This document shows positions 1 through 46,317 of a stretch of DNA of 64,000 bases, in pieces (the first letter of the stretch is position 1; each line of letters opens with the position of its first letter). The DNA is from Clostridiaceae bacterium (GTDB lineage: Bacteria > Bacillota > Clostridia > Saccharofermentanales > DTU023), in contig JAAYNE010000036.1 of NCBI GenBank assembly GCA_012521015.1, positions 4,247-68,246 on the forward strand. Direction: 5' to 3'. Below the pieces are notes generated by a model. That model ran no database searches and was not told where the DNA came from. It saw only the letters and a program-made list of their open reading frames with translations. A program made the position numbers and the translations under genes.

Positions 1-2482
1 GAAAGTGGCGACTGTATTTATTACTATTCCCATAACTGTGCTGTTCTTGGCATCGAAAAATCATGGGATATTTATGGAAAAGAAGAGGGAAGTGATAATA
101 TACAGGGAAGCGGAAGGATTGGCGGGCAGCAGCCGATTACGATTGTTTGAAACAGCAGGAGCCATATTTACAATTGGTGCCTTAGGAGCCTTTTTTACAG
201 GATATTTTATTGGGAAAGGGGATTTAGTAAAGGAGCTTTTGCTCGCTTTATTTGTGTTTTTTCTTGGTACGTTTTTAAGTTTTGTACCGCAAATAGTAAA
301 AAAGCATACTGTTCAGAATACCCTCTTCCTGATAATAGGTATAATTGGTATGACTGCTTTCATAATTGCAGGCATTGATACGGGGGCAGTAACAATATGG
401 GCAGTATATATAGTATTTCTTCTGTATACCGTTGTTCTGAATAGTAATATTCATGCGTTTATCTTTTTAATTGCAACCCTGATAACTCAAGTTGTTCTTG
501 GGATAATTCGCCCGAAGGTGTATGCCATTATCGATGATACTCAGTATCTGAAAAGAATTTTTCTTATTGTACTTTCCTATTATGCCGTGCGATATCTGAC
601 AGCCGAATATGCTTCAAAGATAAAGGGGTATCAAAAATTTTCAAGAGAACAGAGAGTGCTTGAAAATATTTCTTCCAGTTTTATTTCTATTAATAAAGAA
701 AACGCCAAAGAGAAAATCGATGGAATGTTGGAAATGTCGTCTGAAATACTTGGATTTAACTATGCATATTTAATCGAATTTGGCGAGGATTACGAAAATG
801 CAACAATTCTTAATACCTGTGTGAAAAATGTTGATAGTGGATTATTTCCCTTTCATCCTGGAATGCAAGTTAAGACTGCCTCTTTGCCCATGGCTCAACC
901 TCTGATTGATCAGGAGACACCTATCACGTGTGAAGAATTCAAAATAATTGCCACTGACGAAGCCGGAGAGCAAAGAAATTTTTTCCTGTCAAGAGGAATA
1001 AAATCTTTTTTCGCACTGCCGGTAATGCTTGATAAAAAAATAATAGGAATGCTGGTTACTGAACACCCTGACCAGTGTGATGTAAGTTTAAGAGAAAGCC
1101 GATTAAATTTTTTAAAAATCGTTGTAAATATGTTGGGAGACACAAGGAAAAAGACCTTGTACGAAGAAATGCTATATAATTTCGCATATTTTGATGAAGC
1201 TACGAAATTGGCGAACAGGAATATGCTGAAACAAAGGTTGGAGCAAATTATAGATGACAGAAAAGGGTCAGAGAAAATTGCCGTTTTAGGTATTGAGCTT
1301 GAGAACCTCAGGATGATTAAGGATACCTTCGGTCACAATATAGGTGAGCAGATCATGATAGAGTCGGCGAAAAATCTTGATAATTTGCTGGAGCAATGTT
1401 GTGATATCTCACGGACAAGTGAAGGAGAGTTTGTTATTGTTCTGCCTAAGGTAGAAAATACTAAGCAGATAGAGAATTGCGCAAAGAGATTACTTGATTC
1501 TTTTTCTAATCCTATATCAACCGAGACAGGAATAGAAGCATTATTTGTTGTTGTTCATATAGGTATATCCGTATATCCGGACGGTGGAAGAGATACGGAT
1601 ACTCTTTTGAAGAATGCGGATCTGGCATTATACGAAGCAAAAAATACTAATGAGAAGATTGTTTTCTACACAGAACGACTGGAAAGCCATATTGCGGAAA
1701 ACACTATGTTCACAAATCGGCTTTTTAAATCGTTGCAAAATGAAGAATTTTTTCTGGAGTTTCAGCCTCAGATAAGCTGTGACACGAGGCAAACAGTCGG
1801 GATAGAAGCTTTGCTCAGATGGAAGACTGACGGCAATAAAAGGGTATCACCGGACAGATTTATCCCCATACTTGAACAAACAGGATTGATTTACGATGTG
1901 GGGCTCTGGGTGTTGGAACAAGCACTTCAAGAGCATAAAAGGCTTATATCAAAGAGATTTCCACCTCTTCGCGTTTCTGTAAACTTATCGGTTGTACAAT
2001 TCCAAAAAGAATGTTTTATTCCCGATTTTACAAGAATCATAGAGGAAAGCGGAGTAGATCCGAAGTATATTGAGCTGGAGATTACGGAAAGTTTGTTCTC
2101 TAAAGACCCTGAGGATGTACTTAATAAAATATATAAATTAAAAAACTTAGGAGTTAATATTGTCATAGATGATTTCGGCAAAGGTTACTCATCATTAAAT
2201 CGATTGAAGTTGGTACCTTTTGACAGAATAAAAATAGATAAAGAGATTATAGATTATATCGATTTAGATAGAAAAACAGCTCCCATAACGGAAATTATTA
2301 TTCTACTAGGAAAAACTTTTAGAGCAGGTATTACAGCTGAAGGCGTGGAAACTAAAGGACAGGCGGATATTTTGAGAGACATACACTGCGATGAAATACA
2401 AGGATTTTATTATTCAAGGCCTCTGTCGCCACAAGCATTGGAAGAATTCCTTAAAAAGGAAATAATACAGGATCTTGGCTAA
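1..2482 (+). CDS. Membrane sensor c-di-GMP phosphodiesterase, degenerate GGDEF + intact EAL (5'-partial, continues upstream of window)
   Basis: The frame is open to the window edge (track ORF 5..2482). Residues ~25 onward align with residues ~237 onward of the downstream paralog, so about 210 N-terminal codons lie outside the window. The N-terminal part is hydrophobic and multi-TM. The GGDEF position reads SEGEF and GHxxGD reads GHNIGE. EAL signatures are present: GIEALLRW, ELEITES, DDFGKGYSSL, AEGVET, QGFYYSRP. Confidence 0.85.
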   Translation, partial: KVATVFITIPITVLFLASKNHGIFMEKKREVIIYREAEGLAGSSRLRLFETAGAIFTIGALGAFFTGYFIGKGDLVKELLLALFVFFLGTFLSFVPQIVKKHTVQNTLFLIIGIIGMTAFIIAGIDTGAVTIWAVYIVFLLYTVVLNSNIHAFIFLIATLITQVVLGIIRPKVYAIIDDTQYLKRIFLIVLSYYAVRYLTAEYASKIKGYQKFSREQRVLENISSSFISINKENAKEKIDGMLEMSSEILGFNYAYLIEFGEDYENATILNTCVKNVDSGLFPFHPGMQVKTASLPMAQPLIDQETPITCEEFKIIATDEAGEQRNFFLSRGIKSFFALPVMLDKKIIGMLVTEHPDQCDVSLRESRLNFLKIVVNMLGDTRKKTLYEEMLYNFAYFDEATKLANRNMLKQRLEQIIDDRKGSEKIAVLGIELENLRMIKDTFGHNIGEQIMIESAKNLDNLLEQCCDISRTSEGEFVIVLPKVENTKQIENCAKRLLDSFSNPISTETGIEALFVVVHIGISVYPDGGRDTDTLLKNADLALYEAKNTNEKIVFYTERLESHIAENTMFTNRLFKSLQNEEFFLEFQPQISCDTRQTVGIEALLRWKTDGNKRVSPDRFIPILEQTGLIYDVGLWVLEQALQEHKRLISKRFPPLRVSVNLSVVQFQKECFIPDFTRIIEESGVDPKYIELEITESLFSKDPEDVLNKIYKLKNLGVNIVIDDFGKGYSSLNRLKLVPFDRIKIDKEIIDYIDLDRKTAPITEIIILLGKTFRAGITAEGVETKGQADILRDIHCDEIQGFYYSRPLSPQALEEFLKKEIIQDLG

Positions 2483-2780
2483 TTGCTTTTTAAGATTGTT
2501 TCTGTACATATTATCAATAATTTTTGTATTAACTGCTCAGCCCTTAGCCACCCGGAACACATTGGTTGATACAAATTTCTTTATTTGATGACTGTTTTCT
2601 TTTCTTTTATTTTAGAAGTCTTTTTTATGATAGAATGAATAGAGTTTATCAAAAACGTAAGGAATTTTTTCGCTATTATACTTACCATCGCAAATATGAG
2701 AAAAAATACTTGAAAATTGGAAAAACAGAAATAATTTGCGATAGGCAGAGACGAAAGACTTTACCTAGGAGGTTAGGAAC

Positions 2781-5700
2781 GTGAAATACAGCCTCATCTT
2801 GTCAATATTATTTTATATTTGCGGTTGTTTTTATATGATTTTCGGAGCATATATAGTAGCTGCTAATGTAAAAAGTAATGTTAATAAGCTGTTTGTATTT
2901 ATGACAAGTACATTGGCAATTTGGTCATTTGCATTCTCCATTTCAACCTCGGCACCTACAGCGGAAGTAAGTGCATTTTGGGGATGTGTCTCCGTTTTCG
3001 GCTGGGGAGTTTTTTACAGTGTTATGTTGCGCTTTGTGCTGATTCTGACAAAAGCCAAGCGCCGATTAAACAAGTGGGTTAGACTCGCTGTAATCTATGT
3101 GCCCGCTCTTATAAATATCATCCTGTTTGCACCCTTCGGATTTCTTGGAACAAAACAATTCCGATTGGTGCAAAGTGACTTCGGCTGGGTAAACACACTT
3201 CCCATCAATATGGGGAATATTTGGTTTATCGTATACTACTCTGTTTTCACGATAGCAATTCTTACATTGATTATTCGCTGGTTAAAAAGAATTGAGCCTG
3301 ATGACCCTCTGAAGCGGCAGGCAAGATATTTCTTAATATCCTCAATGTTCCCCCTCTTCATGGGAGTGTCAACGGAGACAATACCTGACCTTCTCGGTAT
3401 AGCCTCTCTTCCCAAGTTGACCGTTATTTTTTTGATGGTTCCCGTGATATCACTGTTTTCATTATTGAAAAAAATCAATTTGCTCGTCGAAAAAAGCAGG
3501 GAGAAAACCGTGTTTCGGGAATCCGAAGAATTATTGGAAGAAGAGAGGATACGCTTGTTTCAAACGGTAACAGCTGTATTTACAATTGGTGCCGCAATAA
3601 CCTTTTTAGTTAGATATTTCGGTATAAATAAACCGTTAAAAGATGAACTTTTGCTTGCGGCCGTTTTATTATCAGCCGGAATACTCGTAAGGATTATACC
3701 GCATATTACGAAAAAGCATGCTATTCAGAATGGCTTGTTCCAAACAGTAAGTACGTTAAGCATTTTGTATTTTTTGATGGCAAACTCTGATACAGGAGCA
3801 TTAACGATATGGTCGATATATATATTGTTTCTCCTGTTCACCGTTGTCCTTGACAGTAAAATTCATGCTATTGTCTTTACTATATTGATGGTAGTAATTC
3901 AAATTGTTTTCTGGATAATCTATCCTAAAGTATCTGTCACCATCGACGGAAATGAATATCTATCAAGAGTTGCTATTATTATACTTTCTTACTTCGCCGT
4001 GCGATATCTTACCGCCGAATACGCTTCAAAGGTAAAGGCATACAAGAAGTTTGCAAGAGAGCAGGAAGTACTTGAACAAATTTCTACCAATTTCATCTCG
4101 ATTAATCGAGAAAATTCTAAAGAGAAAGCCGATGAAATGTTCAAGATGTCGGCCGAGGTACTTGGATTTGATAATGCATATTTAATCGGATTCAGCGATG
4201 ATTATAAAGAAGCCAACGTTTTCAGTACATATACGAAAGAATTTGGGGCTGATTCATTTCCTTATTATTCGGGAATGAAAGTTAAGATGGCCGATTTACC
4301 CGTGGCTGAAGTTCTGATTGCTCAGGGCACACCCTTAATATGTGAAGACATCAAAAACACTTTCCACGAAGGATGTGGCGAGGCAAGAAACTTCCTCATC
4401 TCAAGAGGGATAAACTCTTTTTATGCACTGCCTTTAACAATAGAAGAAGAACAGCCAATAGATGCAATGCTAGTCATTGAATACTATGACCGGGGTAAAG
4501 AAAGCCTTAGAGAAAGCCGATTATACTTTTTAAACATAATTGTAAACATGTTAAGAGATGCAAGGCAAAAGACCCTGTACGAAGAAATGTTATATCATTC
4601 CGCTTATTTTGATGAAAACACAAAATTGGCGAACAGGAATATGTTAATAAACAGACTTGAGCAAACCATACATGCCAGAAAAGAATCAGGGATAATAGCA
4701 GTTTTAAATATTGAACTTGAGAACTTGAGAATAATTAAAGACACCTTCGGTCATAGTATAGGGGAGCAGGTCATGGTAAAGTCGGCAACAATCCTTAAAA
4801 ACATGATGGAGGAAAGTTGTGATATAGCCAGGTCAGGTGAAGGAAAGTTTGTTATTGTTCTGCCTAATGAGGAAAATACAGAACAGATAGAGAAGTGTGC
4901 CGAGAGAATACTTGCTTCTTTTTCTGATCCCGTATCAACCGAGACAAAGATAGAAGCACTGTTTGTTGTTATCCGTATCGGCATATCCGTATATCCGGAT
5001 CATGGCAGAGATGCGGATACTCTCATAAAGAATGCAGATCTGGCAGGCTATCAAGCGAAAAATGCCAATAAGGAGATTGTTTTCTATACGGAACAACTGG
5101 AAGACCGTATTTCGGAAAACACCTTGTTCACGAATCGGCTTCTTAAATCGTTACAAAACGACGAATTTTTCCTGGAGTTTCAACCTCAAATTAGCTGTGT
5201 TACGGGTAAAACTGTCGGAATTGAAGCATTGCTAAGATGGACGATTGACAACAATGAAAGAGTAGGGCCGGATAGATTTATCCCAATACTTGAGCAAACG
5301 GGCTTGATATATGATGTTGGACTCTGGGTGCTGGAACAAGCACTGCAAGAGCATAATAGACTTATAGCACAAGGCTTTCCGCCTCTTCGCGTATCTGTAA
5401 ACTTATCGGTTGTACAATTTCAGGGAGAAAAATTTATACCCGATTTTGCAAGAATCATAGAAGAAAGCGGAGTAGATCCGAAGTATATTGAGCTGGAGAT
5501 AACGGAAAGCTTGTTCTCGAAAGATCCGGAAGATGCACTTGATAAAATATACAAATTGAAAGGGCTGGGAGTAAATATAGCCATAGATGATTTCGGCAAA
5601 GGATACTCATCATTAAGTCGCTTGAAAATGGTACCGTTTGACCGAATAAAAATAGATAAAGAGATAATAGATTATATAGATTTAGAAAAGAAACAAGCAC

Positions 5701-5882: not shown

Positions 5883-5976
5883 TCCGGACACCTTTCGGCG
5901 ATTGAAATGTTTTTTTCAATTATATTAGAGTAAGTTAAATTATATTTATACTGCACTGCTAACTTAAGGAGATGAT

Positions 5977-6870
5977 TTGTTGCTTAGCGAATATTTATTT
6001 GAACATGCTGTAACAGCGAAACAGTTTTTTAATGTATTAAGAACACATGTAGTACGTTCCAGAACGGCAATTACAGCCGTTTTTCTGGGTCTTTACAATG
6101 TAAATGAATTTGATATAGATGAAATGCCGGAGACAGAGGAAAAAACAACGGATTTCTTGAAACATGAAATCAGAAAGTCTGATTGCGTTTTCAAATTTTA
6201 CCGCCAATTCAGATGGTTTATTATTTTGTCCCAAACCGGTGAAAGAGAGGCGGCTGCATTTCTTCGACGCTTGTATATATCAGTAAAAAATAAAGGCTTT
6301 CCAGGCTTGGAAGGACGTGAATTTTTATTTTCCGCCAGTGTGGCAGAAATAGGTAATGATGATGGCACTTTCGAAGAATTGATTGCAGAAGGCATGTCGA
6401 CTTTGGCAGAAAGTTTAAGTAAAGGGCCTGAGCAGATTGAATTCATTACTACCTTTAAAAAAAGACCCTTAGAAATGATTAGAGTTAGCATTTTGGAGGA
6501 AAATGCTATTTTCCGCAATGTACTTTATCGAACTTTAGAAAATTTAGATTTGGATCATTTTGAGATGGAAATAAAAACATTTCAAGATGGCTATGAATTC
6601 TTGGAGTCTGATTGGCACCTTTCCAGTCATACCCATCTCATAATCATGAATGATATACTCCCTCGTGAAAGTGGATTAGATGTATTACATAAAGTGCGCA
6701 TGTTGCCTAATAATAAAAAGTTTATTGTTTTTATGATGACCAAAGGCAGTTCGGAAGAAGACATGATTTACGTTTATGAAAGCGGTGCAGACAATTATTT
6801 TATTAAACCTTTTAATTTACGTCTACTAGAAGTGGAAATTAAAAGAACCTTTGAGAGGTTATGGTTATGA
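5977..6870 (+). CDS. Degenerate GGDEF-like domain (RxxD I-site retained) fused to a C-terminal receiver (REC) domain; candidate c-di-GMP receptor/regulator
   Basis: TTG start 5-8 nt after AAGGAG. The N-terminal ~165 aa follow GGDEF-domain topology, but the GGDEF position reads YRQFR. An RKSD motif (6172-6183) lies exactly 5 residues upstream of it, which is the I-site spacing. The C-terminal ~125 aa form a REC fold: SILEEN, IIMND, FMMT, FIKPF. Confidence 0.65.
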   Translation: MLLSEYLFEHAVTAKQFFNVLRTHVVRSRTAITAVFLGLYNVNEFDIDEMPETEEKTTDFLKHEIRKSDCVFKFYRQFRWFIILSQTGEREAAAFLRRLYISVKNKGFPGLEGREFLFSASVAEIGNDDGTFEELIAEGMSTLAESLSKGPEQIEFITTFKKRPLEMIRVSILEENAIFRNVLYRTLENLDLDHFEMEIKTFQDGYEFLESDWHLSSHTHLIIMNDILPRESGLDVLHKVRMLPNNKKFIVFMMTKGSSEEDMIYVYESGADNYFIKPFNLRLLEVEIKRTFERLWL

Positions 6871-7907
6871 TACAGGTATCCATTGATTTTTTAATAAAAG
6901 GGATTGGAGTTCTGTTTCTCATACTTACGCTTTTAAGCATTTATATGGTAGTGAATGGCGTTAAAGAAAACACCGCTTCTAGGAAAATAAAGCTATATAT
7001 ACAAAGTAAGCAAGATCTATGGTACCGATATTTCAAAAATGAAATTCCACTACCCTCGGAGCTTATACCCCATGACAATATTGAAATTCAAGCTGTAGAG
7101 GAAATTTTTCTTGCCTACGTACAAAATATATCTAATCCGATTGTTAAGGAAAAAATCCGGAAGTTTTCCAATCAATATTTAAGGCAGTATTATTTAAACC
7201 TTCTTTTGGGCAGGAGATGGAGTTTAAGAGTAAATGCTCTCTACAGGATTATTAGTTTTGGAATAGATTCCTTAGCCGATGAATGTAAGAAATTAGAAAA
7301 AAGACCCAAATTGTCCCCGGAGGAGCATTTTCAGTTGCTAATTATTCGTTCTATCTTCGATGAAGCAAATTTTTTAGAGGGATTTGCCAATTTGTCAATG
7401 AAACTCTCCGAATATGAATACAAAAAATTAATAATAGGTTTTAACTCGGAAATTCTTAAAAAACTGACTTCACAAGTGAGTGATTTTCCTTTAGAGTACC
7501 AATATTATTTTATTGATGTTTTAGGAATTAGCCGAAATTTTGACTTTTTGCCATTTTTGGAGAATAACCTTAGTCATGAAAACTCGGAAATTCGTATTCG
7601 CTCCTTAAAAGCCATTAATGAAATAGGCATCGTTGCTGACTTGGATAAGTATATGGTTTTCTTAAATTCCCCTATATGGGAAGAGCGTCTAATGTTGGCT
7701 AAGATTTTAGGAGCTTTTCCTTTAGAGCAGGTATTTTCGTATTTAGCACAATTGTTACAAGATGAAAATTGGTGGGTGCGTTTCCATGCCGCCCGAAGTA
7801 TTGGCAATAGTAAGTCTGGTAAGTCCTGGTTGGAGACATTCATTGCAACGGCTCAAGATCCGTATGCCATTGAGATGGCTCGCGAAGTATTGGGAAGAGA
7901 GTATTGA
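6861..7907 (+). CDS. Membrane-anchored HEAT-repeat protein
   Basis: Overlaps the preceding gene by 10 nt. It has one N-terminal hydrophobic helix (GIGVLFLILTLLSIYMVV). The C-terminal part has HEAT/PBS-lyase-type repeats (ENSEIRIRSLKAINEIG, DENWWVRFHAARSIGN). Confidence 0.75.
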   Translation: MVMIQVSIDFLIKGIGVLFLILTLLSIYMVVNGVKENTASRKIKLYIQSKQDLWYRYFKNEIPLPSELIPHDNIEIQAVEEIFLAYVQNISNPIVKEKIRKFSNQYLRQYYLNLLLGRRWSLRVNALYRIISFGIDSLADECKKLEKRPKLSPEEHFQLLIIRSIFDEANFLEGFANLSMKLSEYEYKKLIIGFNSEILKKLTSQVSDFPLEYQYYFIDVLGISRNFDFLPFLENNLSHENSEIRIRSLKAINEIGIVADLDKYMVFLNSPIWEERLMLAKILGAFPLEQVFSYLAQLLQDENWWVRFHAARSIGNSKSGKSWLETFIATAQDPYAIEMAREVLGREY

Positions 7908-7910
7908 TCA

Positions 7911-9356
7911 ATGAGTACGATAGCTGATATTTTGATGAAGTTCTTTGGTGGCTTTATTCTGCTATATATGGGTGCCATTATTTTGACCTATACCGGTATG
8001 TTAATATTTGCATTTATCGAATTGCGTAAGCAATATAAATTAGACAAGACTGTTTTAGATGAAGATTATATAGATAGTTTTTATTCCAAACCACTTTCGA
8101 TCATAATACCTGCATATAATGAAGAAGTTGGTGTTGTTGACAGCGTTCAATCTGTATTAAATTTAAAGTATCCTCAAACTGAGCTCATTATCGTCAATGA
8201 TGGTTCTACAGATAAGACTCAGCAAGTTGTAATAGAGCAATTTAAGATGAAAAAGATTCCTAAGGTAGTCAAAGAACAAATCAAATCTAAACCGATTATC
8301 CAAGTTTATCAATCGGAAATTCATCACAATTTATTTTTAATAGAAAAAGAGAATGGCGGGAAAGCCGATGCCTTAAATGCGGGCATTAACCTCGCCAAAT
8401 ATCCGTATTTTTGTTCTATTGACGGAGACTCTATATTAGACGAAAAATCCCTATTACGAGTCATGAAACCAATTGTTATGTCGAACGAAGAGGTCATTGC
8501 TGCCGGGGGCAATGTTCGTATTGCTAACGGTCTTGATGTCCACATGGGATCGGTTTATCCAAAAAGAAGCTTGCCGAATCGTCCTTTGGTTCTAATGCAA
8601 ATCATAGAATATACGAGAGCCTTCATGATGGGGAGAATCTCCTTATCTAAACATAATTTAATACTCATTATTTCAGGAGCCTTTAGTGTATTTGCTAAAA
8701 AGTGGGTTGTTAAAGTAGGAGGATATTCTGTCCAAACGATTGGTGAAGATATGGAACTGGTCGTTAAATTACATCGATATCTTTACGAAAATAAAATAAA
8801 GAAAAGAATTGAGTTTGTTCCTGATCCCGTATGTTGGACAGAAGCCCCGGAAAGCCTTGGTGTATTAAGAAAACAGCGCAGAAGGTGGCATCAAGGGTTA
8901 ATTGAAAGTCTGACAAAACATAAAAGAATGACTTTAAACCCAAGATACGGTAAAATCGGCATGATTTCTTTTCCTTATTTTTGGATGGTCGAATGTTTCG
9001 GACCACTTATTGAGCTGGGTGGTCATATATACATTATTATAGCTTTCTTTTTAGGCAAGGTTTATTTCGAATTTGCTATATTGCTAACTTTGTTATTAGT
9101 CTTGTATGGTTCTATTCTTTCTACTTTTTCTGTCTTAATGGAGACTTGGAGTATGAATGTTTATTCGGCAACAAAGAATTTTTTCAAATTAATTCTTATG
9201 TCTTTAACGGAAGCTTTCTGGTATAGACCTCTAACTTTGATTTGGAGATGTGAAGCGTTTATACAAGTTCTTTTAGGCCGGAAAAGTTGGGGTCACATGA
9301 AAAGGGTGGGGCTTTCAAAGAAAACTCGCCGTAAGAGGAGCAATTTTCCTAAATGA
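7911..9356 (+). CDS. Family-2 glycosyltransferase, processive membrane polysaccharide synthase (PgaC/IcaA/YdaM-like)
   Basis: Starts 3 nt after the previous stop. Motifs seen: IIPAYNEE, SIDGDS (DxD), GEDMEL and QRRRWHQG (QxxRW). TM helices flank the catalytic domain on both the N- and C-terminal sides. Confidence 0.9.
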   Translation: MSTIADILMKFFGGFILLYMGAIILTYTGMLIFAFIELRKQYKLDKTVLDEDYIDSFYSKPLSIIIPAYNEEVGVVDSVQSVLNLKYPQTELIIVNDGSTDKTQQVVIEQFKMKKIPKVVKEQIKSKPIIQVYQSEIHHNLFLIEKENGGKADALNAGINLAKYPYFCSIDGDSILDEKSLLRVMKPIVMSNEEVIAAGGNVRIANGLDVHMGSVYPKRSLPNRPLVLMQIIEYTRAFMMGRISLSKHNLILIISGAFSVFAKKWVVKVGGYSVQTIGEDMELVVKLHRYLYENKIKKRIEFVPDPVCWTEAPESLGVLRKQRRRWHQGLIESLTKHKRMTLNPRYGKIGMISFPYFWMVECFGPLIELGGHIYIIIAFFLGKVYFEFAILLTLLLVLYGSILSTFSVLMETWSMNVYSATKNFFKLILMSLTEAFWYRPLTLIWRCEAFIQVLLGRKSWGHMKRVGLSKKTRRKRSNFPK

Positions 9357-9433
9357 AACGTAATTTAATGGGCTTAAGCCTTTTAACATTTATAATTTTA
9401 CCTATTATCTGGCAATTATTGCCTGACAAGTAA
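9353..9433 (+). pseudogene. 26-codon ORF, translationally coupled to the GT2 gene; probable remnant of a deleted paralog of the downstream gene (or a micro-membrane protein)
   Basis: Its ATG overlaps the GT2 stop (ATGA at 9353-9356). It encodes MKRNLMGLSLLTFIILPIIWQLLPDK, then a stop. This resembles the signal anchor MKRFIFLIIIFVLIIVIPFILWQLEPDK encoded just upstream of the 9668 ORF. The two also share nucleotide strings (TGGCAATTA..GCCTGA). Confidence 0.35.
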
Positions 9434-9667
9434 TCTCATTGGTAATAATCGGCAAGCTTATTTATGAGGGCATTTGGAGTTTTATCAAATTCTTGCGAAG
9501 AAAAACGACTGGAGCCAATGGGAGAGAGTGTGTTATCTGAAGGAAAGACAACATGAAAAAGGTTTATATTCTTAATAATAATATTTGTACTAATAATAGT
9601 TATTCCCTTTATTCTTTGGCAATTAGAGCCTGATAAAGAGTGTCGTATAGCAATAATTGATAAAACT

Positions 9668-12600
9668 GTGCCTGATGAGACATATCGTGAACATAATGGT
9701 CTTATCTTTCTGTTAAATCACTTAAAGTATAAAAAACAATCAGGTGCCTCATTTGATCCAAGAGAAGATTATTTTGGCTTTTTTCCTAGTGAAAAAGATA
9801 AAAGTTATGAGTTAAAAGCACTGCCAACAGACTATAATGACTATGATGTTATTTATTTGGCGGATACCTATGGCGTTTATGAAAAGGATTTCCCATGGAT
9901 AGAAAAGGAAAGAGAAGGTTCTCGATCAGAAAAAATCTATGGCGGTTTAGAAGTAGAAGAGTGGCTCAATATTCATAATAGATTAGCAAAGAAAGATAAG
10001 AGCCTGTTCATCGCAGAATACAATAAATTTGCTTCTCCTACTAGAAAAGAAGTGAGGGAAAGTATAACCAATTATTTAGGTATCAATTGGTCAGGCTGGG
10101 TAGGGCGATATTTTGATGAATTAGATTTTAATAAAAATGAAGAGATTCCACAATGGATAGTAGATGGGTTTGGGGAATCATGGAATTATAAAGGACAAGG
10201 ATTTATTTTGGTAAATGACATAGATTTTCAAGTCATTGTTCTGGAAATGTCAAAACATGTTTTAGACAAAGGCATTAATATTTCCTTCACCCAAGAGGGT
10301 GAAGAATTCTTCGGACTTAAAAAAAGTCCTAATTACTCATATTGGTTTGACATTATAACTCCTAAACAAGACTCAACCGTGTTGGCTAACTATAATTTGA
10401 ATTTAACCCAAAGCGGGGAGGAACTTCTGGAAGAAAACGGGATTCCTGCCGAGTTCGCTGCGGTTGTAAAAAATGAACGAGGAGCTTGTACTTCCTATTA
10501 TTTTGCAGGTGATTACAATGATATAAGCCGACTACCAAGTATATATAAATTTAAAGGATTACAGAAACTATATAGTTTTTTGGAAAGGAATTCAGATCGT
10601 GCTTTTTATTGGTCAACATATTTTCCTATGATGGAGAAAATTCTGGAAAGTTTTAATAACAGCAGTTCTTTGGCAGAAAGCAAGGATCTGGGAGATGAGG
10701 AAACTATAATTCCGGAAGATAAAGAAAAAAATCTGTATAATGCCAGAGTAAAGGATGACAGTTTCCAAATCTTAAGAGATGGCAAGTGGGAGACAATTAT
10801 AATAAAAGGTGTAAATCTCGGTATGGGTAAACCCGGTGCCTTCCCGGGTGAAGCAGCAATAACTGAAGAAGAGTATTACCGTTGGTTTGAATATATTGGT
10901 GAAATGAATGCCAATGTTATCCGTGTATATACTTTGCATCCACCCGGTTTTTATAATGCTCTGCTTAGCTACAATGAAAATCATGATGAAAAATTATACG
11001 TAATTCACGGTGTTTGGATAAATGAAGAGGAGCTTGTAAATTCGCAAGATGCTTTTGAGGAAAATAACTTGGCTGAATTTCAGCAAGAGATGAAAATAAT
11101 CACAGATGTAATCCACGGAAATAAAATTATTGAAGCCAGACCGGGGCACGCATCAGGGATTTATGCGGCGGACATTTCCCGCTATGTCATAGCCTGGATT
11201 TTAGGTATCGAGTGGGATCCATATATGGTTGAAAACACAAATAAGCTTCACTCATCCATCGGGGATTACAATGGCAATTTTTTTGAGACGAAAGGTGCAA
11301 AACCCTTTGAATATTGGCTTGCGCAGCAGATGGATACTATCGCGCAATACGAGATGGAACAATATAACTATATAAGGCCCGTCAGTTTTACCAATTGGCC
11401 GACAACAGATATATTGGAACATCCTGCCAATTTTCAAGATAGTGAGGATTTGGTCGGTGTCAATCCTAATGTTATATACACTAAAGGAGAAATGGATGCG
11501 GTAGGACAGTTCGCTTCATATCATGTCTATCCGTATTATCCTGATTTCTTAAATGTTGAAGAACAATATCTAAACTATATTGATCACAGAGGGGAAAAGA
11601 ACAATTACGCCGGTTATTTAAATCATCTGAACAGTGTTCACAGACTTCCCATTTTGGTAGCTGAGTTTGGTATACCAGCTTCACGTGGTCTTGCTCACGA
11701 AAACCCCTTTGGTTGGAATCAGGGATTTACATCGGAAAAAGAACAAGGAGAGACTCTACGTCGCCTTTATGAGGACATCTTGGAAGAGAAAATGCTCGGT
11801 GGCCTGGTATTTGCCTGGCAGGATGAATGGTTTAAAAGAACTTGGAATACGGTCGATTATGACAATCCGGATAGAAGACCTTTTTGGTCCAATATTCAAA
11901 CAAACGAACAACGATTCGGACTCCTATGTTTCGATAGAAATAAAATAATGATTGATGGTGATACAGAAGAATGGGAAACGGAACCTTTGTATTGTAAAGA
12001 TCAGGGAGCAATGAGAGGTTTATATGTAGATTACGACGAAACTTATTTGTATATCAGATTGAATTATTCCGATATTGAAAAAGGCTATCCGCTTATTTTA
12101 CTTGATGTCTTGCCTGATCAGGGCAACTATTTTATGAAGGGAAATGACAGTATTGAATTTTCCAACGGAGTTGACTTCATCGTAACGCTAAATGATAAAG
12201 AACCCAGAATTATTATTGACCAGTACTATGACTTTTTCACCTATATGCAAGCTTACCATCTAGAATTAATAGAAAAACCTTCTCCAAATTTGTATAAGAA
12301 CAGCGGGGTTTTTTCAGAAATTCACTATGTGCTCAGCAGAGAATATACCTCTGAAGACGGTGAAATATTAATGCCGTTCACTACTTATGAAACAGGAATG
12401 CTAAGAGAGGGGAATGCCAATCCCGATTCGAAAGATTACGACTCTCTCGCCGATTTTTATATAAATGATGAAGAAATACTGGAATTAAGGATTCCCTGGT
12501 TATTAATCCAAGCAAGAGATCCAAGTCAGAAGGAGTTTATTGGAGATGTCTATAAGGATGGTCTTGAAGCAAGCAGATTTGTCGATGAAATCTATATAGG

Positions 12601-12784
12601 AGCTCTATACATCGATGATAAAGGTACTGTATTGGATTCATTTCCAAGTATAGAAAACAATGTTTTAAGCAGTTTGAGCGCATATTCTTGGGATAACTGG
12701 GAAAAACCTCAATATAAAGAGCGACTGAAAGAATCTTACTATATAATACGGGATTTATTTGATGACAATAGAAGAGACAAATGA
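9668..12784 (+). CDS. Large polysaccharide-processing protein with a glycoside-hydrolase-like TIM-barrel region; the true start is probably ATG 9553, displaced by a frameshift
   Basis: 1038-aa ORF from the first canonical start (GTG). The central region has (beta/alpha)8 hydrolase-like strings: NANVIRVYTLHPP, LVAEFGIPASRG, FAWQDEWFKRTWN. The frame is open back to 9557 and there encodes a TM anchor. I did not recognise a named family with confidence. Confidence 0.7.
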   Translation: MPDETYREHNGLIFLLNHLKYKKQSGASFDPREDYFGFFPSEKDKSYELKALPTDYNDYDVIYLADTYGVYEKDFPWIEKEREGSRSEKIYGGLEVEEWLNIHNRLAKKDKSLFIAEYNKFASPTRKEVRESITNYLGINWSGWVGRYFDELDFNKNEEIPQWIVDGFGESWNYKGQGFILVNDIDFQVIVLEMSKHVLDKGINISFTQEGEEFFGLKKSPNYSYWFDIITPKQDSTVLANYNLNLTQSGEELLEENGIPAEFAAVVKNERGACTSYYFAGDYNDISRLPSIYKFKGLQKLYSFLERNSDRAFYWSTYFPMMEKILESFNNSSSLAESKDLGDEETIIPEDKEKNLYNARVKDDSFQILRDGKWETIIIKGVNLGMGKPGAFPGEAAITEEEYYRWFEYIGEMNANVIRVYTLHPPGFYNALLSYNENHDEKLYVIHGVWINEEELVNSQDAFEENNLAEFQQEMKIITDVIHGNKIIEARPGHASGIYAADISRYVIAWILGIEWDPYMVENTNKLHSSIGDYNGNFFETKGAKPFEYWLAQQMDTIAQYEMEQYNYIRPVSFTNWPTTDILEHPANFQDSEDLVGVNPNVIYTKGEMDAVGQFASYHVYPYYPDFLNVEEQYLNYIDHRGEKNNYAGYLNHLNSVHRLPILVAEFGIPASRGLAHENPFGWNQGFTSEKEQGETLRRLYEDILEEKMLGGLVFAWQDEWFKRTWNTVDYDNPDRRPFWSNIQTNEQRFGLLCFDRNKIMIDGDTEEWETEPLYCKDQGAMRGLYVDYDETYLYIRLNYSDIEKGYPLILLDVLPDQGNYFMKGNDSIEFSNGVDFIVTLNDKEPRIIIDQYYDFFTYMQAYHLELIEKPSPNLYKNSGVFSEIHYVLSREYTSEDGEILMPFTTYETGMLREGNANPDSKDYDSLADFYINDEEILELRIPWLLIQARDPSQKEFIGDVYKDGLEASRFVDEIYIGALYIDDKGTVLDSFPSIENNVLSSLSAYSWDNWEKPQYKERLKESYYIIRDLFDDNRRDK

Positions 12785-13131: not shown

Positions 13132-13806
13132 ATGGAATATACGTTAAGACATGAGATACATGGAGGGAATTTGCCGGTAGCAATTTGCTATCCACAAGCG
13201 GGACAAACAATATATGCGGAGTCTGGAGCAATGGGTTGGATGTCACCTAATATGCAAATGGAAACTTCAGCTGGTGGTATAGGTAAAGCTTTTTCCAGAC
13301 TATTGACCAGTGAGAGTATGTTTTTGAATTATTATACTCCCCAAAATGGTCCGGGCTTATTAGCAATACCGACTAATTTTCCGGGTAGTATTATTTCAAT
13401 AGAAATGGATGGAACACGTGGCTTTATTCTGCAAAAATCCAGTTTTCTGGCGGCAACAATGGGCATAGAACATGAAATTTATTTTCAAAAAAAATTAGGA
13501 GCAGGTTTCTTCGGTGGTGAAGGGTTTATCTTGCAACGTTTTTCCGGTAGAGGAACTCTTTTAGTAGAAATAGATGGTTCTGCTTGGAGTCATTATCTGC
13601 AACCGGGTGAGGAAATGATCATTGATACAGGCTATATGGCAATGATGGATGATACCTGCAAAATGGATATAAGACAAGTGCCGGGCCTTAAAAACAAACT
13701 TTTAGGTGGTGAGGGGCTGTTTAATACAGTGATAACCGGACCGGGCAATGTTACAATTCAATCACATCCGCTTAGTAGAATAGCGGCAAGCTTAACATTC
13801 AAATAA
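13132..13806 (+). CDS. AIM24 / TIGR00266 (DUF124) family protein
   Basis: 224 aa, with AGGAGG 6 nt upstream. The sequence pattern is typical of the family (ESGAMGWMSPNMQMET..., GGEGFILQRFSGRGTLLVEIDGS). Confidence 0.8.
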   Translation: MEYTLRHEIHGGNLPVAICYPQAGQTIYAESGAMGWMSPNMQMETSAGGIGKAFSRLLTSESMFLNYYTPQNGPGLLAIPTNFPGSIISIEMDGTRGFILQKSSFLAATMGIEHEIYFQKKLGAGFFGGEGFILQRFSGRGTLLVEIDGSAWSHYLQPGEEMIIDTGYMAMMDDTCKMDIRQVPGLKNKLLGGEGLFNTVITGPGNVTIQSHPLSRIAASLTFK

Positions 13807-14382: not shown

Positions 14383-14408
14383 ATATATCAAGTCGAGTGG
14401 AGATTTTT

Positions 14409-14708
14409 ATGTATATCGACCAAATCCCGATCTGGCTGACTGAATTAAGTGAAGATGAATTAGAATTTATTAAATTATTCGTATTGGCTTCCGGTTCATT
14501 GAAAGAGTTAGCAAAACATTATGAGATTACCTATCCGACTATCAGACTCAAATTAGATCGGCTCATTCATAAAATTGAAATTTCTGACCAACATCAACCT
14601 AGCGGCATGATCGACTTGATCAAAGAGCTGACTTTGCAAAATAAATTAGATCTTGATACTGCGAAACAGTTAATTGAGATGTATGAAAAAGAGGAAAACA
14701 GCAAATGA
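14409..14708 (+). CDS. Small HTH protein, DUF2089-like
   Basis: I prefer the ATG at 14409 (GGAG lies 6-7 nt upstream) over the GTG at 14397. The string LSEDELEFIKLFVLASGSLKELAKHYEITYPTIRLKLDRLI resembles the DUF2089 HTH region. Confidence 0.55.
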   Translation: MYIDQIPIWLTELSEDELEFIKLFVLASGSLKELAKHYEITYPTIRLKLDRLIHKIEISDQHQPSGMIDLIKELTLQNKLDLDTAKQLIEMYEKEENSK

Positions 14709-14974
14709 TAACAATTTTATATCTGATCTTATTGGTTTCTTTTTTAGTTTTAGAAAAAATTGTTTCTGAGAAAGAACAATATCGAGGCATTTTGTTCGCA
14801 TTAGGAGTTGCGGTTTTAGGTATTCCATTCGGTACAAAATTTATTTGGTTAGCTTTTATTTTGATATGTGTCAATGTCGGAAGGTTTATTTATCAAGAGA
14901 TACAATTAATGAAGCTTACTTCATTAAAAGATCGCTTAGCGAATGTCTTGGAATTTCAAACCAGATTCCTATAA
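14705..14974 (+). CDS. Small hypothetical membrane protein
   Basis: ATGA overlap with the preceding gene. It has two to three hydrophobic segments and no recognisable family. Confidence 0.55.
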   Translation: MITILYLILLVSFLVLEKIVSEKEQYRGILFALGVAVLGIPFGTKFIWLAFILICVNVGRFIYQEIQLMKLTSLKDRLANVLEFQTRFL

Positions 14975-16995: not shown

Positions 16996-18945
16996 TCAAT
17001 CTTTAGCAAAAGTGTCTACTTCATGTTGCAGCCGTTCGATTAACTCTGATTCACTCATTATGCCGAGGTCACCGGCTTTACGTTGGCGCACAGAATAGTT
17101 TTGATTTTCGATTTCCTGATCCCCCATGACTAACATATAGGGAATTTTTTCCAGTTGAGCATCACGGATTTTACGTCCGACTTTTTCATTTCTGCTATCG
17201 ACTTTTACACGGAAACCTGCAGCAGTTAAACGACTTGCAGCATCTTTAGCACCTTGGAAGTGTTTTTCAGCAATCGGCAAGATGACTATTTGTTCCGGTG
17301 CAACCCATAAGGGGAGAGCACCGGCATATTTTTCGATTAGTAAAGCAAGTGTTCTTTCATAACAACCGATTGAAGTTCTGTGAATGATGTGCGGGTGTTT
17401 TTTCTCACCGTTACTATCGATATAAACCATATCAAAACGTTCTGCCAGCTGAAAATCGATTTGGATTGTAATCAGTGTATCTTCTTTACCGAAGACATTT
17501 CTGATTTGAATATCTAATTTCGGACCATAAAAAGCGGCTTCACCGATGCCGGTTTCATACTCAATTCCGGTGGAATCCAGGATGGCTTGCATTGAGTCTT
17601 GAGCATTTTGCCATTCTTGCGGATCACCGATATATTTGTCTTTATTGTCCGGATCCCAGATTGAAAAACGATAGCTGACATCTTGATCTAAACCCAATGC
17701 TTTGAGCATGAAATTAGCTAAATCGAATGCCCCGAGGAACTCTTCTTTTAATTGCTCCGGAGTCACCATCAGATGTGCTTCGGAAATTGTGAATTGTCTC
17801 AGGCGGATTAAACCGTGCATTTCACCGGAGGATTCATTGCGGAAAAGCGTTGAAGTTTCATTCAAACGGATAGGCAAATCACGATAACTTCTGGTTTCAG
17901 CCTTATAAATCTGATATTGGAAAGGACAGGTCATCGGGCGCAAAGCATATGCTGTTTCGCCGTCTTTTTCTTCCGGATCCCCCATGATAAACATACCGTC
18001 ACGGTAATGATCCCAATGACCGGAAATCTTGAACAAATCGGATTTGGCAATCAGCGGTGTTTTGGTAATCTGATAACCGCGTTTTTGCTCTTCATCTTCA
18101 ACAAAACGTTCTAAAATTTGCAGAGTTTTTGCACCTTTGGGCATAAATAGGGGCAAGCCCTGACCGATAAAATCAATGGTTGTAAAGTAGCCAAGTTCAC
18201 GGCCTAATTTATTATGGTCACGTTTTCTGGCCTCTTCCATTTGAACCAAATATTCTTTTAATTGTTTTTTATCCGGAAAACTGATTCCGTAAATACGTTG
18301 CAGCATTTTGTTCTTTTCATCGCCCCGCCAATATGCACCTGAAACTTGCAGCAACTTGAAAGCTTTAACCATACCGGTATTCATTAAGTGCGGACCGGCA
18401 CATAAATCAACAAAATCGCCCTGCTTATAAAATGAAATTGTTTCATCAGGCGGCAAATCTTCAATTAATTCGACTTTATAGTCTTCATTAATATCTTTTG
18501 CCCATTGCAAAGCATCGTCACGCGACAGAGTATAGAATTCAAGCGGCAGATTTTCCTTTACGATATTCTGCATTTCTTTTTCGATTTTTTCTAAATCGTC
18601 ATTCGTGAAATTTTGTTCCAGATCAATATCATAATAAAAACCGTTATCAATTGCCGGACCGATTGCCAACATCGCATCAGGATATAAACGCTTGATCGCT
18701 TGCGCCATGATATGTGAAGTTGTATGCCAAAAAGCCTTTTTCCCTGCTTTTTGCTCAAATTTCAATAATTCCAATGTGTCACCGTCATTGAGTTTGGTTC
18801 TGAGATCAACATCAACTCCATTCACTTTTGCCAGACAGACATTTCTTGCAAGATTTTCACTGATAGCCGTCGCCGCATCGAATGCAGAAGAATTCTTTTC
18901 CAATTGTAACGGCGAACCGTCTTTTAATTTAATTTCTATACTCAT
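16996..18945 (-). CDS. thrS: Threonine--tRNA ligase
   Basis: 649 aa with an N-terminal TGS-like domain and the editing motif HTTSHIMAQA. Class II core strings are present (FRNESSGEMHGLIRLRQFTISEAH). A Thr T-box leader lies upstream. Confidence 0.97.
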   Translation of the reverse strand: MSIEIKLKDGSPLQLEKNSSAFDAATAISENLARNVCLAKVNGVDVDLRTKLNDGDTLELLKFEQKAGKKAFWHTTSHIMAQAIKRLYPDAMLAIGPAIDNGFYYDIDLEQNFTNDDLEKIEKEMQNIVKENLPLEFYTLSRDDALQWAKDINEDYKVELIEDLPPDETISFYKQGDFVDLCAGPHLMNTGMVKAFKLLQVSGAYWRGDEKNKMLQRIYGISFPDKKQLKEYLVQMEEARKRDHNKLGRELGYFTTIDFIGQGLPLFMPKGAKTLQILERFVEDEEQKRGYQITKTPLIAKSDLFKISGHWDHYRDGMFIMGDPEEKDGETAYALRPMTCPFQYQIYKAETRSYRDLPIRLNETSTLFRNESSGEMHGLIRLRQFTISEAHLMVTPEQLKEEFLGAFDLANFMLKALGLDQDVSYRFSIWDPDNKDKYIGDPQEWQNAQDSMQAILDSTGIEYETGIGEAAFYGPKLDIQIRNVFGKEDTLITIQIDFQLAERFDMVYIDSNGEKKHPHIIHRTSIGCYERTLALLIEKYAGALPLWVAPEQIVILPIAEKHFQGAKDAASRLTAAGFRVKVDSRNEKVGRKIRDAQLEKIPYMLVMGDQEIENQNYSVRQRKAGDLGIMSESELIERLQHEVDTFAKD

Positions 18946-46240: not shown

Positions 46241-46317
<77 letters not shown>

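Follow-up and report, generated by a model that had tools for sequence, protein, structure and literature searches.

Few polysaccharide systems controlled by cyclic di-GMP (c-di-GMP) are, to our knowledge, known from Gram-positive bacteria: Pel, ydaJKLMN, pssA-E and gts. In PelD the I-site is kept while the GGDEF motif is lost. YdaK has an RxxD I-site five residues before its own lost motif, and this site is needed for production of the exopolysaccharide (EPS) (PMC5422440). PssC of the pssA-E system is a glycosyltransferase of family 2 (GT2) that is about 30% identical to IcaA (PMC4125290). Here we consider a four-gene operon in a 64-kb stretch of DNA from a Clostridiaceae bacterium (contig JAAYNE010000036.1, positions 4,247 to 68,246; hereafter the window). 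It encodes a GGDEF-receiver protein (gene 1), a membrane HEAT-repeat protein (gene 2), a GT2 synthase (gene 3) and a large protein with a predicted glycoside hydrolase (GH) barrel (gene 4). We think it probable that this is a widely conserved, uncharacterised set for synthase-dependent extracellular polysaccharide, linked to c-di-GMP, of which this region holds one copy. A preliminary description, made from the sequence alone, had not recognised the gene set as a characterised system, and our literature searches found no description of it. It had also held that the logic matches known c-di-GMP-linked, synthase-dependent EPS systems. The pieces for that are all present: a candidate I-site receptor with a degenerate GGDEF domain, a HEAT protein, a processive-type GT2 and a GH-like protein.

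Four open reading frames (ORFs) on the same strand had been called, and all four stand (Table 1). They are not chance features because their order is kept across dozens of species. We compared 84 fetched homologous loci, labelled L001 onwards. Eighty of these are species loci from a GTDB scan of one genome per species and four are near-clonal metagenome contigs (L001-L004). The neighbourhood comparison that had been proposed finds GGDEF-REC, HEAT and GT2 genes together with gene 4, in that order, in 58 of the 84. These 58 loci come mostly from Bacillales, plus Tissierella-like and other Clostridia metagenome-assembled genomes (MAGs). Relatives of gene 4 were found by the same scan in at least 598 GTDB species. 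The operon is widespread in the Bacillales and Clostridia and is not a rarity of the window genome. Two cassettes (L090, 8001-12643; L091, 8001-12711) have three genes, in the order short gene 4, HEAT and GT2, and no GGDEF-REC gene nearby. The conserved core is the HEAT protein, the GT2 and the protein with the clan GH-A barrel, to which, as these cassettes suggest, the c-di-GMP module has been added.

The junctions between the genes are tight as well. Gene 2 starts 10 nt before the end of gene 1, and this overlap becomes a 4-nt ATGA if the second ATG (6867) is taken as the start of gene 2, and 3 nt separate gene 2 from gene 3. The junction of genes 3 and 4 is a 4-nt ATGA overlap in 33 of the 42 species loci where it could be assessed, and a 1-nt overlap in three more. 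Decay of the operon across relatives had been named as something that would speak against it; instead we find this junction and the gene order conserved. Translational coupling of all the genes had also been claimed. The 10-nt overlap and the 3-nt gap agree with that claim, but the ATGA does not join gene 3 to the 1038-aa ORF. The reading frame that starts with the ATG at 9353 ends after 26 codons, and 311 nt lie between gene 3 and the long ORF. Genes 3 and 4 lack translational coupling in this genome.

The N-terminal domain of gene 1 is not seen by the usual searches. Pfam matches the receiver (residues 171-286, 1.8e-10) and nothing else in the window's gene 1, so that the N-terminal 165 residues have no Pfam match. 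A search of PDB sequences with the gene-1 profile returned receivers only. Foldseek with the whole model is dominated by receivers too, with one GGDEF-EAL entry at rank 32. A hidden Markov model of the N-terminal domain has no significant match to the window's own GGDEF proteins. It was the profile-profile comparison that gave the answer. Against a template profile made from 56 GGDEF domains of the fetched loci, hhalign gives a probability of 99.6% (E 7e-25) and places the RxxD of gene 1 on the RxxD of the template. Pfam GGDEF matches 16 of 79 gene-1 family members when they are scanned singly. The AlphaFold model (mean predicted local distance difference test score, pLDDT, 88.6) has the helix/strand alternation of a GGDEF-like fold. 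A degenerate GGDEF domain is what the preliminary description had proposed, and the domain indeed has no GG[DE]EF motif. The receptor candidate had also been called soluble, and a hydropathy scan predicts no transmembrane segment.

Across the 79 homologues, R27, R66, D69 and R98 are the sole invariant residues of this domain. Like the degenerate-GGDEF I-site receptors of the PelD, YdaK, PssE and BcsE type, gene 1 has lost the motif and has RxxD plus an extra Arg. The conservation pattern is that of an I-site c-di-GMP receptor, which makes gene 1 a candidate receptor. The receiver needs a correction. That gene 1 carries one was right, but the domain is degenerate. Asn225 aligns with D57 of CheY and D54 of Spo0F, and Asn occupies this position in at least 90% of the 79 homologues. 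The acidic pair is Glu174-Glu175, with Thr255 and Lys277 retained. Asn225 and the Glu174-Glu175 pair set gene 1 apart from phosphorylatable receivers. Because Asn replaces the phospho-accepting Asp, the domain does not, to judge from its residues, look like a normal two-component input.

The state of gene 1 differs between operons, and we compared 55 operon-linked copies. The GG[DE]EF motif is intact in 21 of them (RYGGEEF or a near variant), and all 21 have the phospho-Asp. Their receiver is canonical, with a DDD pocket and ILDG.MP.MDG. Priestia, Anoxybacillus, Metabacillus, Mesobacillus and Neobacillus are examples. Loci with an intact gene 1 include L060, L062-L064, L066-L069, L071, L074-L078, L080 and L083. 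It lies at about 6400-7450 in most of them, but at about 3100-4030 in L069, and in L066 it extends to 840. The other 34 of the 55 are degenerate: 24 have Asn at the phospho-site, and 8 are degenerate but keep Asp. The degenerate form with Asn is found in the window, its MAG relatives, Siminovitchia, Lysinibacillus and Sporosarcina-like taxa. In all 25 loci where gene 4 is at least 50% identical to that of the window, gene 1 is degenerate, and none of these 25 copies has lost RxxD or R98. Since distant orthologous operons carry an intact GGEEF cyclase with a normal receiver, we argue that the most likely history is a conversion. The window's clade would have turned an operon-dedicated, phosphorylation-controlled cyclase into a receptor, keeping the c-di-GMP site alone. 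As a separate observation, the intact form has GGDEF before REC, which is the reverse of the order in cyclases of the PleD/WspR type.

It could be argued instead that gene 1 is no c-di-GMP receptor. It would then be a signal-independent adaptor or a degenerate-receiver regulator, with the conserved Arg and Asp kept for protein contacts. RxxD is absent in 11 of the 55 operon-linked orthologues, and the degenerate receiver has invariant residues of its own (S171, G205, H220, D226, G233, N245, G270, D272 and P278). There are also the cassettes that exist without any GGDEF gene. However, RxxD and R98 stay in every one of the 25 copies of the degenerate clade while the catalytic motif drifts freely. 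The RxxD lies exactly five residues before the former GGDEF hairpin, and c-di-GMP turnover genes adjoin the operon. The proven I-site receptor YdaK has the same pattern (PMC5422440). We consider this alternative unlikely and retain gene 1 as the candidate receptor.

Gene 2 is the membrane HEAT-repeat protein it was first said to be, with HEAT_2 repeats (Pfam 9.5e-13) and one N-terminal transmembrane helix (residues 10-28). Its matches among PDB sequences are alphaRep HEAT proteins, and the repeats resemble the PBS type. From the charge around the helix, the positive-inside rule would put the HEAT domain in the cytoplasm. We know of no membrane HEAT-repeat protein described as the partner of a bacterial synthase.

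Gene 3 has the catalytic motifs of a processive membrane GT2 (DGS 97, DGD 171-173, GED 278-280, QRRRW 322-326). Transmembrane segments flank the catalytic domain on both sides (7-25, 363-381, 388-406 and more toward the C-terminus), as given by a simple hydropathy scan, not a topology model. Pfam matches Glyco_tranf_2_3, Glyco_trans_2_3 and Chitin_synth_2, and residues 255-335 match BcsA in PDB. The best NCBIfam match is TIGR03937 PgaC_IcaA. CelA (TIGR03030) and NodC give weaker matches, CelA with 41 bits where the cut-off is 699. There is no PilZ or BcsB match, and with that CelA score the protein does not belong with the Bcs cellulose synthases. The synthase had been described as PgaC/IcaA/YdaM-like, with DxD and QRRRW. 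The motifs and the nearest family hold, but with PgaC_IcaA the protein reaches 140.7 bits where the curated cut-off is 422.3, one third of what an equivalog would need, and the indirect comparison discussed below does not support orthology with YdaM. We would call gene 3 a processive-type synthase that appears to be the equivalog of no named one.

The operon could still be a poly-beta-1,6-GlcNAc (PNAG) system of the PgaC/IcaA type. PgaC_IcaA is after all the best NCBIfam family for the GT2, and JGI labels its close homologues 'biofilm PGA synthesis N-glycosyltransferase PgaC'. Against this stands the score far under the cut-off. The ORFs of the locus include no PgaD/IcaD-like partner and no CE4 deacetylase of the PgaB/IcaB kind, and the HEAT and clan GH-A accessories are unlike PgaB/IcaB. 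The GT2 also matches Chitin_synth_2, CelA and NodC, and neither sugar nor linkage can be read from its sequence. We regard a PNAG system as quite improbable. The preliminary description had seen no PilZ domain, no deacetylase and no IcaD/PgaD-like partner. Pfam and NCBIfam scans of the four proteins find neither of the first two, and the sole small membrane ORF at the locus is the 26-codon remnant of gene 4.

Gene 4 has no Pfam, NCBIfam or PDB sequence match as a whole protein, and its three domains scanned singly have no Pfam match with E up to 10, BcsB included. The evidence is in the structure. The AlphaFold model (mean pLDDT 84) has an N-terminal alpha/beta domain (about 1-330), a clan GH-A (beta/alpha)8 barrel (about 385-760) and a C-terminal beta-rich domain (about 780-1020). 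The top Foldseek matches are GH157 (E 2e-11), GH2, GH17, GH5 and the GH72 transglycosylases Gel4 and Gas2, at 8-14% identity. Six residues do not vary among 62 sequences (R419, H447, E453, Y621, E666, W717), and a seventh, H619, is found in 61 of the 62. The predicted structure thus has both the barrel and the two glutamates of clan GH-A. No curated CAZy-linked Pfam GH family gives a significant sequence-model match. A GH-like TIM barrel in the 1038-aa protein had been proposed from the sequence. AlphaFold, Foldseek and the invariant glutamates support a GH-like barrel, and catalysis is a prediction.

Homologues of gene 4 are typically about 1060 aa long and begin MKRxYI..LP.I.W.LEP.K..AIIDKTVP.ETYREH, that is, with a basic N-terminus and a transmembrane helix before the body. 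The family is large. It has 2569 clusters at 50% identity (E up to 1e-3), and 1077 at 1e-30, among 1.84 billion representatives. Many representatives are about 700 aa long, so the short form is common.

In the window the 5' end of gene 4 is damaged. The 1038-aa product as called has no hydrophobic, transmembrane or signal segment, and there is no Shine-Dalgarno-like sequence upstream of its GTG (9668). The 26-codon ORF resembles the N-terminal membrane anchor of gene-4 homologues, with a single hydrophobic helix. It lies within a 200-nt segment that relatives do not have, and the copy of about 97 nt that opens this segment aligns to the gene-4 5' end with a local score of 46 (25 +/- 4 for shuffles). 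The remainder of the insert has no match elsewhere in the window or in the other fetched loci, and the idea that this second half is a repeat or mobile-element fragment is unsupported for that reason. After the insert comes a second start. The long-ORF frame contains the anchor codons but no start codon ahead of them, since this ATG (9553) is shifted by one base. A single-base insertion within 9556-9575 accounts for the frame break. A one-off assembly error is ruled out since four other metagenome assemblies (L001-L004) have the same 461-nt junction, letter for letter. We add as an observation of its own that the 26-codon ORF, at the conserved ATGA start, could be translated as a tiny membrane peptide.

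Two MAG loci whose GT2 clusters with the window's at 90% or more (L085 and L086, 8001-10136 in each) have an in-frame short gene 4 of 711 aa. Here the anchor is fused straight to the GH-A barrel and the N-terminal alpha/beta domain is gone.

Does this mean that the system is broken in this genome? Gene 4 would then be a recent pseudogene, there would be no polymer-processing machinery and the operon would be heading for loss. The out-of-frame ATG, the remnant that occupies the conserved ATGA start, the GTG without a ribosome-binding site and the missing anchor and signal all favour this, and L085 and L086 are rearranged at the same end of the gene. However, the 1038-codon frame is open in a 35% GC genome and its body keeps every family-invariant residue. 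Measured against 22 outgroup sequences, its distance averages 0.386, compared with 0.393-0.416 for seven intact sisters, so it has evolved no faster than they have. Decay of the gene-4 body is unsupported on both counts. Genes 1-3 are intact. Some product could still come from re-initiation or from a +1 slip on the A-run, and remodelling at the N-terminal end of gene 4 is tolerated, as the short form in L085 and L086 shows. A broken system is a serious possibility, though we lean somewhat against it. We prefer to say that the lesion is either recent or bypassed, e.g. by a +1 slip on ATG AAA AAG G. Even so, an anchored gene-4 product is likely to be scarce or absent in this genome. The damaged start is also a caution against accepting the automated 1038-aa gene call as is.

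We propose the following mechanism for the intact operon. The c-di-GMP level would be set by other enzymes, including the two upstream proteins with degenerate GGDEF and EAL domains. c-di-GMP would bind the I-site of gene 1 (R66/D69/R98). Loaded gene 1 would dock on the GT2 and on the HEAT scaffold in the cytoplasm, turning polymerisation on. The GT2 would then polymerise a sugar chain and export it through its own membrane channel. Finally, the anchored GH-A protein, predicted to lie outside the membrane, would trim, release, transglycosylate or graft the chain. In this genome that trimming or release step is probably impaired.

Several points weigh against this reading. Binding of c-di-GMP by gene 1 is predicted from motif conservation only, and the interaction of gene 1, HEAT protein and GT2 is suggested by co-occurrence alone. 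In operons with an active cyclase as gene 1, c-di-GMP may be sensed by another component, and the receptor here could also be the GT2 or the HEAT protein. Homologues of gene 4 are also found as orphan genes away from a GT2, so the role of this protein need not be bound to the synthase. As for the lesion, the five assemblies that share the frameshift are near-identical across the locus (two single-base differences in all) and are not independent lineages. L001-L004 are so close to clonal that they carry no population or dN/dS information.

There is a wider claim on which we find the balance even. It is that HEAT, GT2 and anchored GH-A protein form a separate, widespread, unstudied class of Firmicutes EPS system, and that in one large clade its GGEEF-receiver cyclase was converted into a dead-receiver c-di-GMP receptor. 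If true, this is a natural switch from enzyme to sensor inside one conserved operon, and the family is a testable case of a local cyclase becoming a receptor. It would add a Gram-positive c-di-GMP polysaccharide system present in hundreds of Bacillales species, with Lysinibacillus, Sporosarcina, Priestia, Anoxybacillus and Paenibacillus among the taxa concerned. A role in polysaccharide synthesis is proposed here for a membrane HEAT-repeat protein. The gene-4 family has more than 2500 sequence clusters and neither a Pfam nor an NCBIfam model. The operon could bring to light a biofilm polymer and a family of glycoside hydrolases that are both new.

Table 1. Features of the operon and its surroundings in the window (position 1 is the first letter of the 64-kb stretch)
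Feature	Position	Strand	Basis or remark
GAF-GGDEF-EAL protein, cut by the window edge	5..2482	+	Pfam; 1037 aa in L001
7TM-GGDEF-EAL protein, 1033 aa	2781..5882	+	Pfam HisKA_7TM, GGDEF, EAL
Promoter-like TTGAAA-18-TAGAGT	5902..5931	+	In the 94-nt gap before gene 1; weak evidence
Gene 1	5977..6870	+	297 aa; TTG start, AAGGAG 5 nt upstream
Candidate RxxD I-site, R66-K-S-D69 (RKSD)	6172..6183	+	Five residues before the former GGDEF hairpin
Lost GG(D/E)EF position, now YRQFRW	6199..6216	+	hhalign and orthologue alignment
N225-D226, Asn at the phospho-acceptor position	6649..6654	+	Alignment to CheY and Spo0F; conservation
Gene 2	6861..7907	+	348-aa HEAT membrane protein (346 aa from ATG 6867)
Gene 3	7911..9356	+	481-aa membrane GT2 synthase
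Remnant ORF, 26 codons (MKRNLMGLSLLTFIILPIIWQLLPDK)	9353..9433	+	ATG overlaps the gene-3 stop (ATGA); TAA 9431-9433
200-nt segment absent from relatives	9353..9552	+	First ~97 nt a diverged copy of the gene-4 5' end
Second gene-4 start, ATG 9553	9553..9633	+	AAGGA 8 nt upstream; reads MKKVYIL, out of frame to TGA
Anchor and linker codons (KRFIFLIIIFVLIIVIPFILWQLEPDKECRIAIIDKT) in the long-ORF frame	9557..9667	+	No start codon in front
Gene 4 body	9668..12784	+	1038-aa ORF, GTG start
Candidate acid/base E453	11024-11026	+	Follows strand 4 (444-450)
Candidate nucleophile E666	11663-11665	+	Ends strand 7 (662-667)

The two GGDEF-EAL proteins upstream of the operon are paralogous and about 62-65% identical. 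The first has no GG[DE]EF and has intact EAL motifs (EALLR, DDFGKG, EGVE), and the second combines a degenerate GGDEF motif with intact EAL motifs. Both look like phosphodiesterases because GG[DE]EF is absent and the EAL motifs are intact, and we take this as their likely function. The preliminary description had assumed as much. Only close relatives of the window (L001-L006, L085 and L087) have GGDEF-EAL genes beside the operon, upstream of it or, in L006, downstream. In L001 and L004 there is a third upstream gene, for a 363-aa GGDEF protein, beyond the window edge. Promoter-like sequences are no more frequent here than in shuffled sequence, and the scan found no terminator after gene 4. An Rfam scan of the 64-kb window has no c-di-GMP riboswitch; its sole match is one tRNA (46244-46317, -). 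The threonyl-tRNA synthetase gene (16996-18945, -) has no Rfam T-box match at gathering score. An AIM24-family protein (13132-13806) follows gene 4 after 347 nt, and then, at 14397-14974, come a DUF2089 protein and a small ORF. These genes are outside the operon because their adjacency is not conserved in other species.

Other arrangements of gene 4 occur among the fetched loci. In L034, L035, L039, L041, L042, L044 and L061 the HEAT and GT2 genes are on the opposite strand and converge on gene 4, so these are neighbours but not one transcript. This arrangement is seen in Planococcus, Jeotgalibacillus, Pontibacillus and Rossellomorea. Orphan gene-4 homologues with intact anchors are present in L017, L038, L070 and L088, where no GT2 or HEAT gene is found within 10 kb. 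The orphan in L070 (Geobacillus) is followed downstream by genes for a 742-aa membrane protein and a small GT2. In L088 a JetA-JetB-JetC-like (Wadjet-type) set (25-5240) adjoins an orphan short gene 4 and is probably unrelated.

It remains to compare the operon with known systems, and first with ydaJKLMN and pssA-E. The window's operon might be a divergent orthologue of these, with gene 1 as YdaK/PssE, gene 3 as YdaM/PssC and gene 4 as YdaN/PssD. At about 700 aa, the short forms of gene 4 are close in length to YdaN (703 aa). The logic is shared as well: an I-site receptor with a degenerate GGDEF domain, a GT2 and a large extracytoplasmic partner right after the GT2 (PMC5422440, PMC4125290). 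However, the best 120 matches to the GT2 of the Lysinibacillus operon, down to 61% identity, include no B. subtilis-group protein and so no YdaM from that group. A YdaM homologue has been reported from Lysinibacillus at 73.8% identity (PMC13274460, Table 1). It must be a different gene. By this indirect comparison, which covers the GT2s only, the operon GT2 would not be the YdaM orthologue and both systems would coexist in Lysinibacillus. Gene 4 has no BcsB match (Pfam E up to 10), yet PssD is described as a BcsB orthologue (PMC4125290). Pfam scans of the locus give no GH8, BcsB, PilZ or deacetylase signal. Neither of these two operons is known to include a HEAT protein. An orthologue of ydaJKLMN or pssA-E is thus very improbable, and we keep to an operon of its own kind.

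The likeness to ydaJKLMN is that of a Gram-positive synthase-dependent EPS system in which a degenerate GGDEF protein with RxxD goes with a PgaC/BcsA-like GT2 and then a large partner. The parts had been said to differ, and we agree. YdaK has four transmembrane helices and no receiver, whereas gene 1 is soluble with a degenerate receiver. YdaJ is a GH8 enzyme, for which the window's locus has no gene, and a HEAT membrane protein precedes the GT2 instead. The GT2 search without a B. subtilis-group YdaM points the same way. For the listerial system the likeness is in PssE, an I-site receptor with a degenerate GGDEF domain that is essential for EPS, and in a linked hydrolase, PssZ (PMC4125290). 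The listerial system differs in having no known HEAT protein and no receiver domain. Gene 4 has a predicted clan GH-A barrel and no BcsB signal, unlike the BcsB orthologue PssD. In Listeria the hydrolase belongs to GH8 and its gene lies elsewhere.

BcsE, from cellulose secretion in enterobacteria, joins a phosphorylation-incompetent receiver to a dead GGDEF domain that binds c-di-GMP via RxxD, and it is a soluble regulator of a GT2 synthase. Its order is receiver then GGDEF, which is reversed in gene 1, and it has an extra N-terminal ATPase-like domain. It works with BcsQ, BcsR and BcsF in Gram-negatives, and its synthase has a PilZ domain. Pel is alike in that a degenerate GGDEF I-site receptor, PelD, gates a polysaccharide machine. 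PelD is paired with PelE, a TPR-like helical-repeat membrane protein that is maybe a scaffold. Pel differs from the window's operon, the Gram-positive Pel cluster included (PMC7112168), in that PelD is a membrane protein with GAF, PelF is a soluble GT4 and not a membrane GT2, and PelA is GH166/CE4. PgaCD/IcaAD is the best-scoring family for the GT2, which shares its membrane topology and its D, DxD, GED and QxxRW motifs. PgaCD is directly activated by c-di-GMP. The window has no PgaD/IcaD and no deacetylase, its accessories are different, and its score is one third of the equivalog cut-off. Gene 4 has its likeness elsewhere. It matches no Pfam GH model, and it adds two flanking domains and a membrane anchor to what is predicted to be the same fold as clan GH-A (GH157, GH2, GH5, GH17 and GH72), with Glu after strands 4 and 7 and the Arg, His/Tyr and Trp in their positions.

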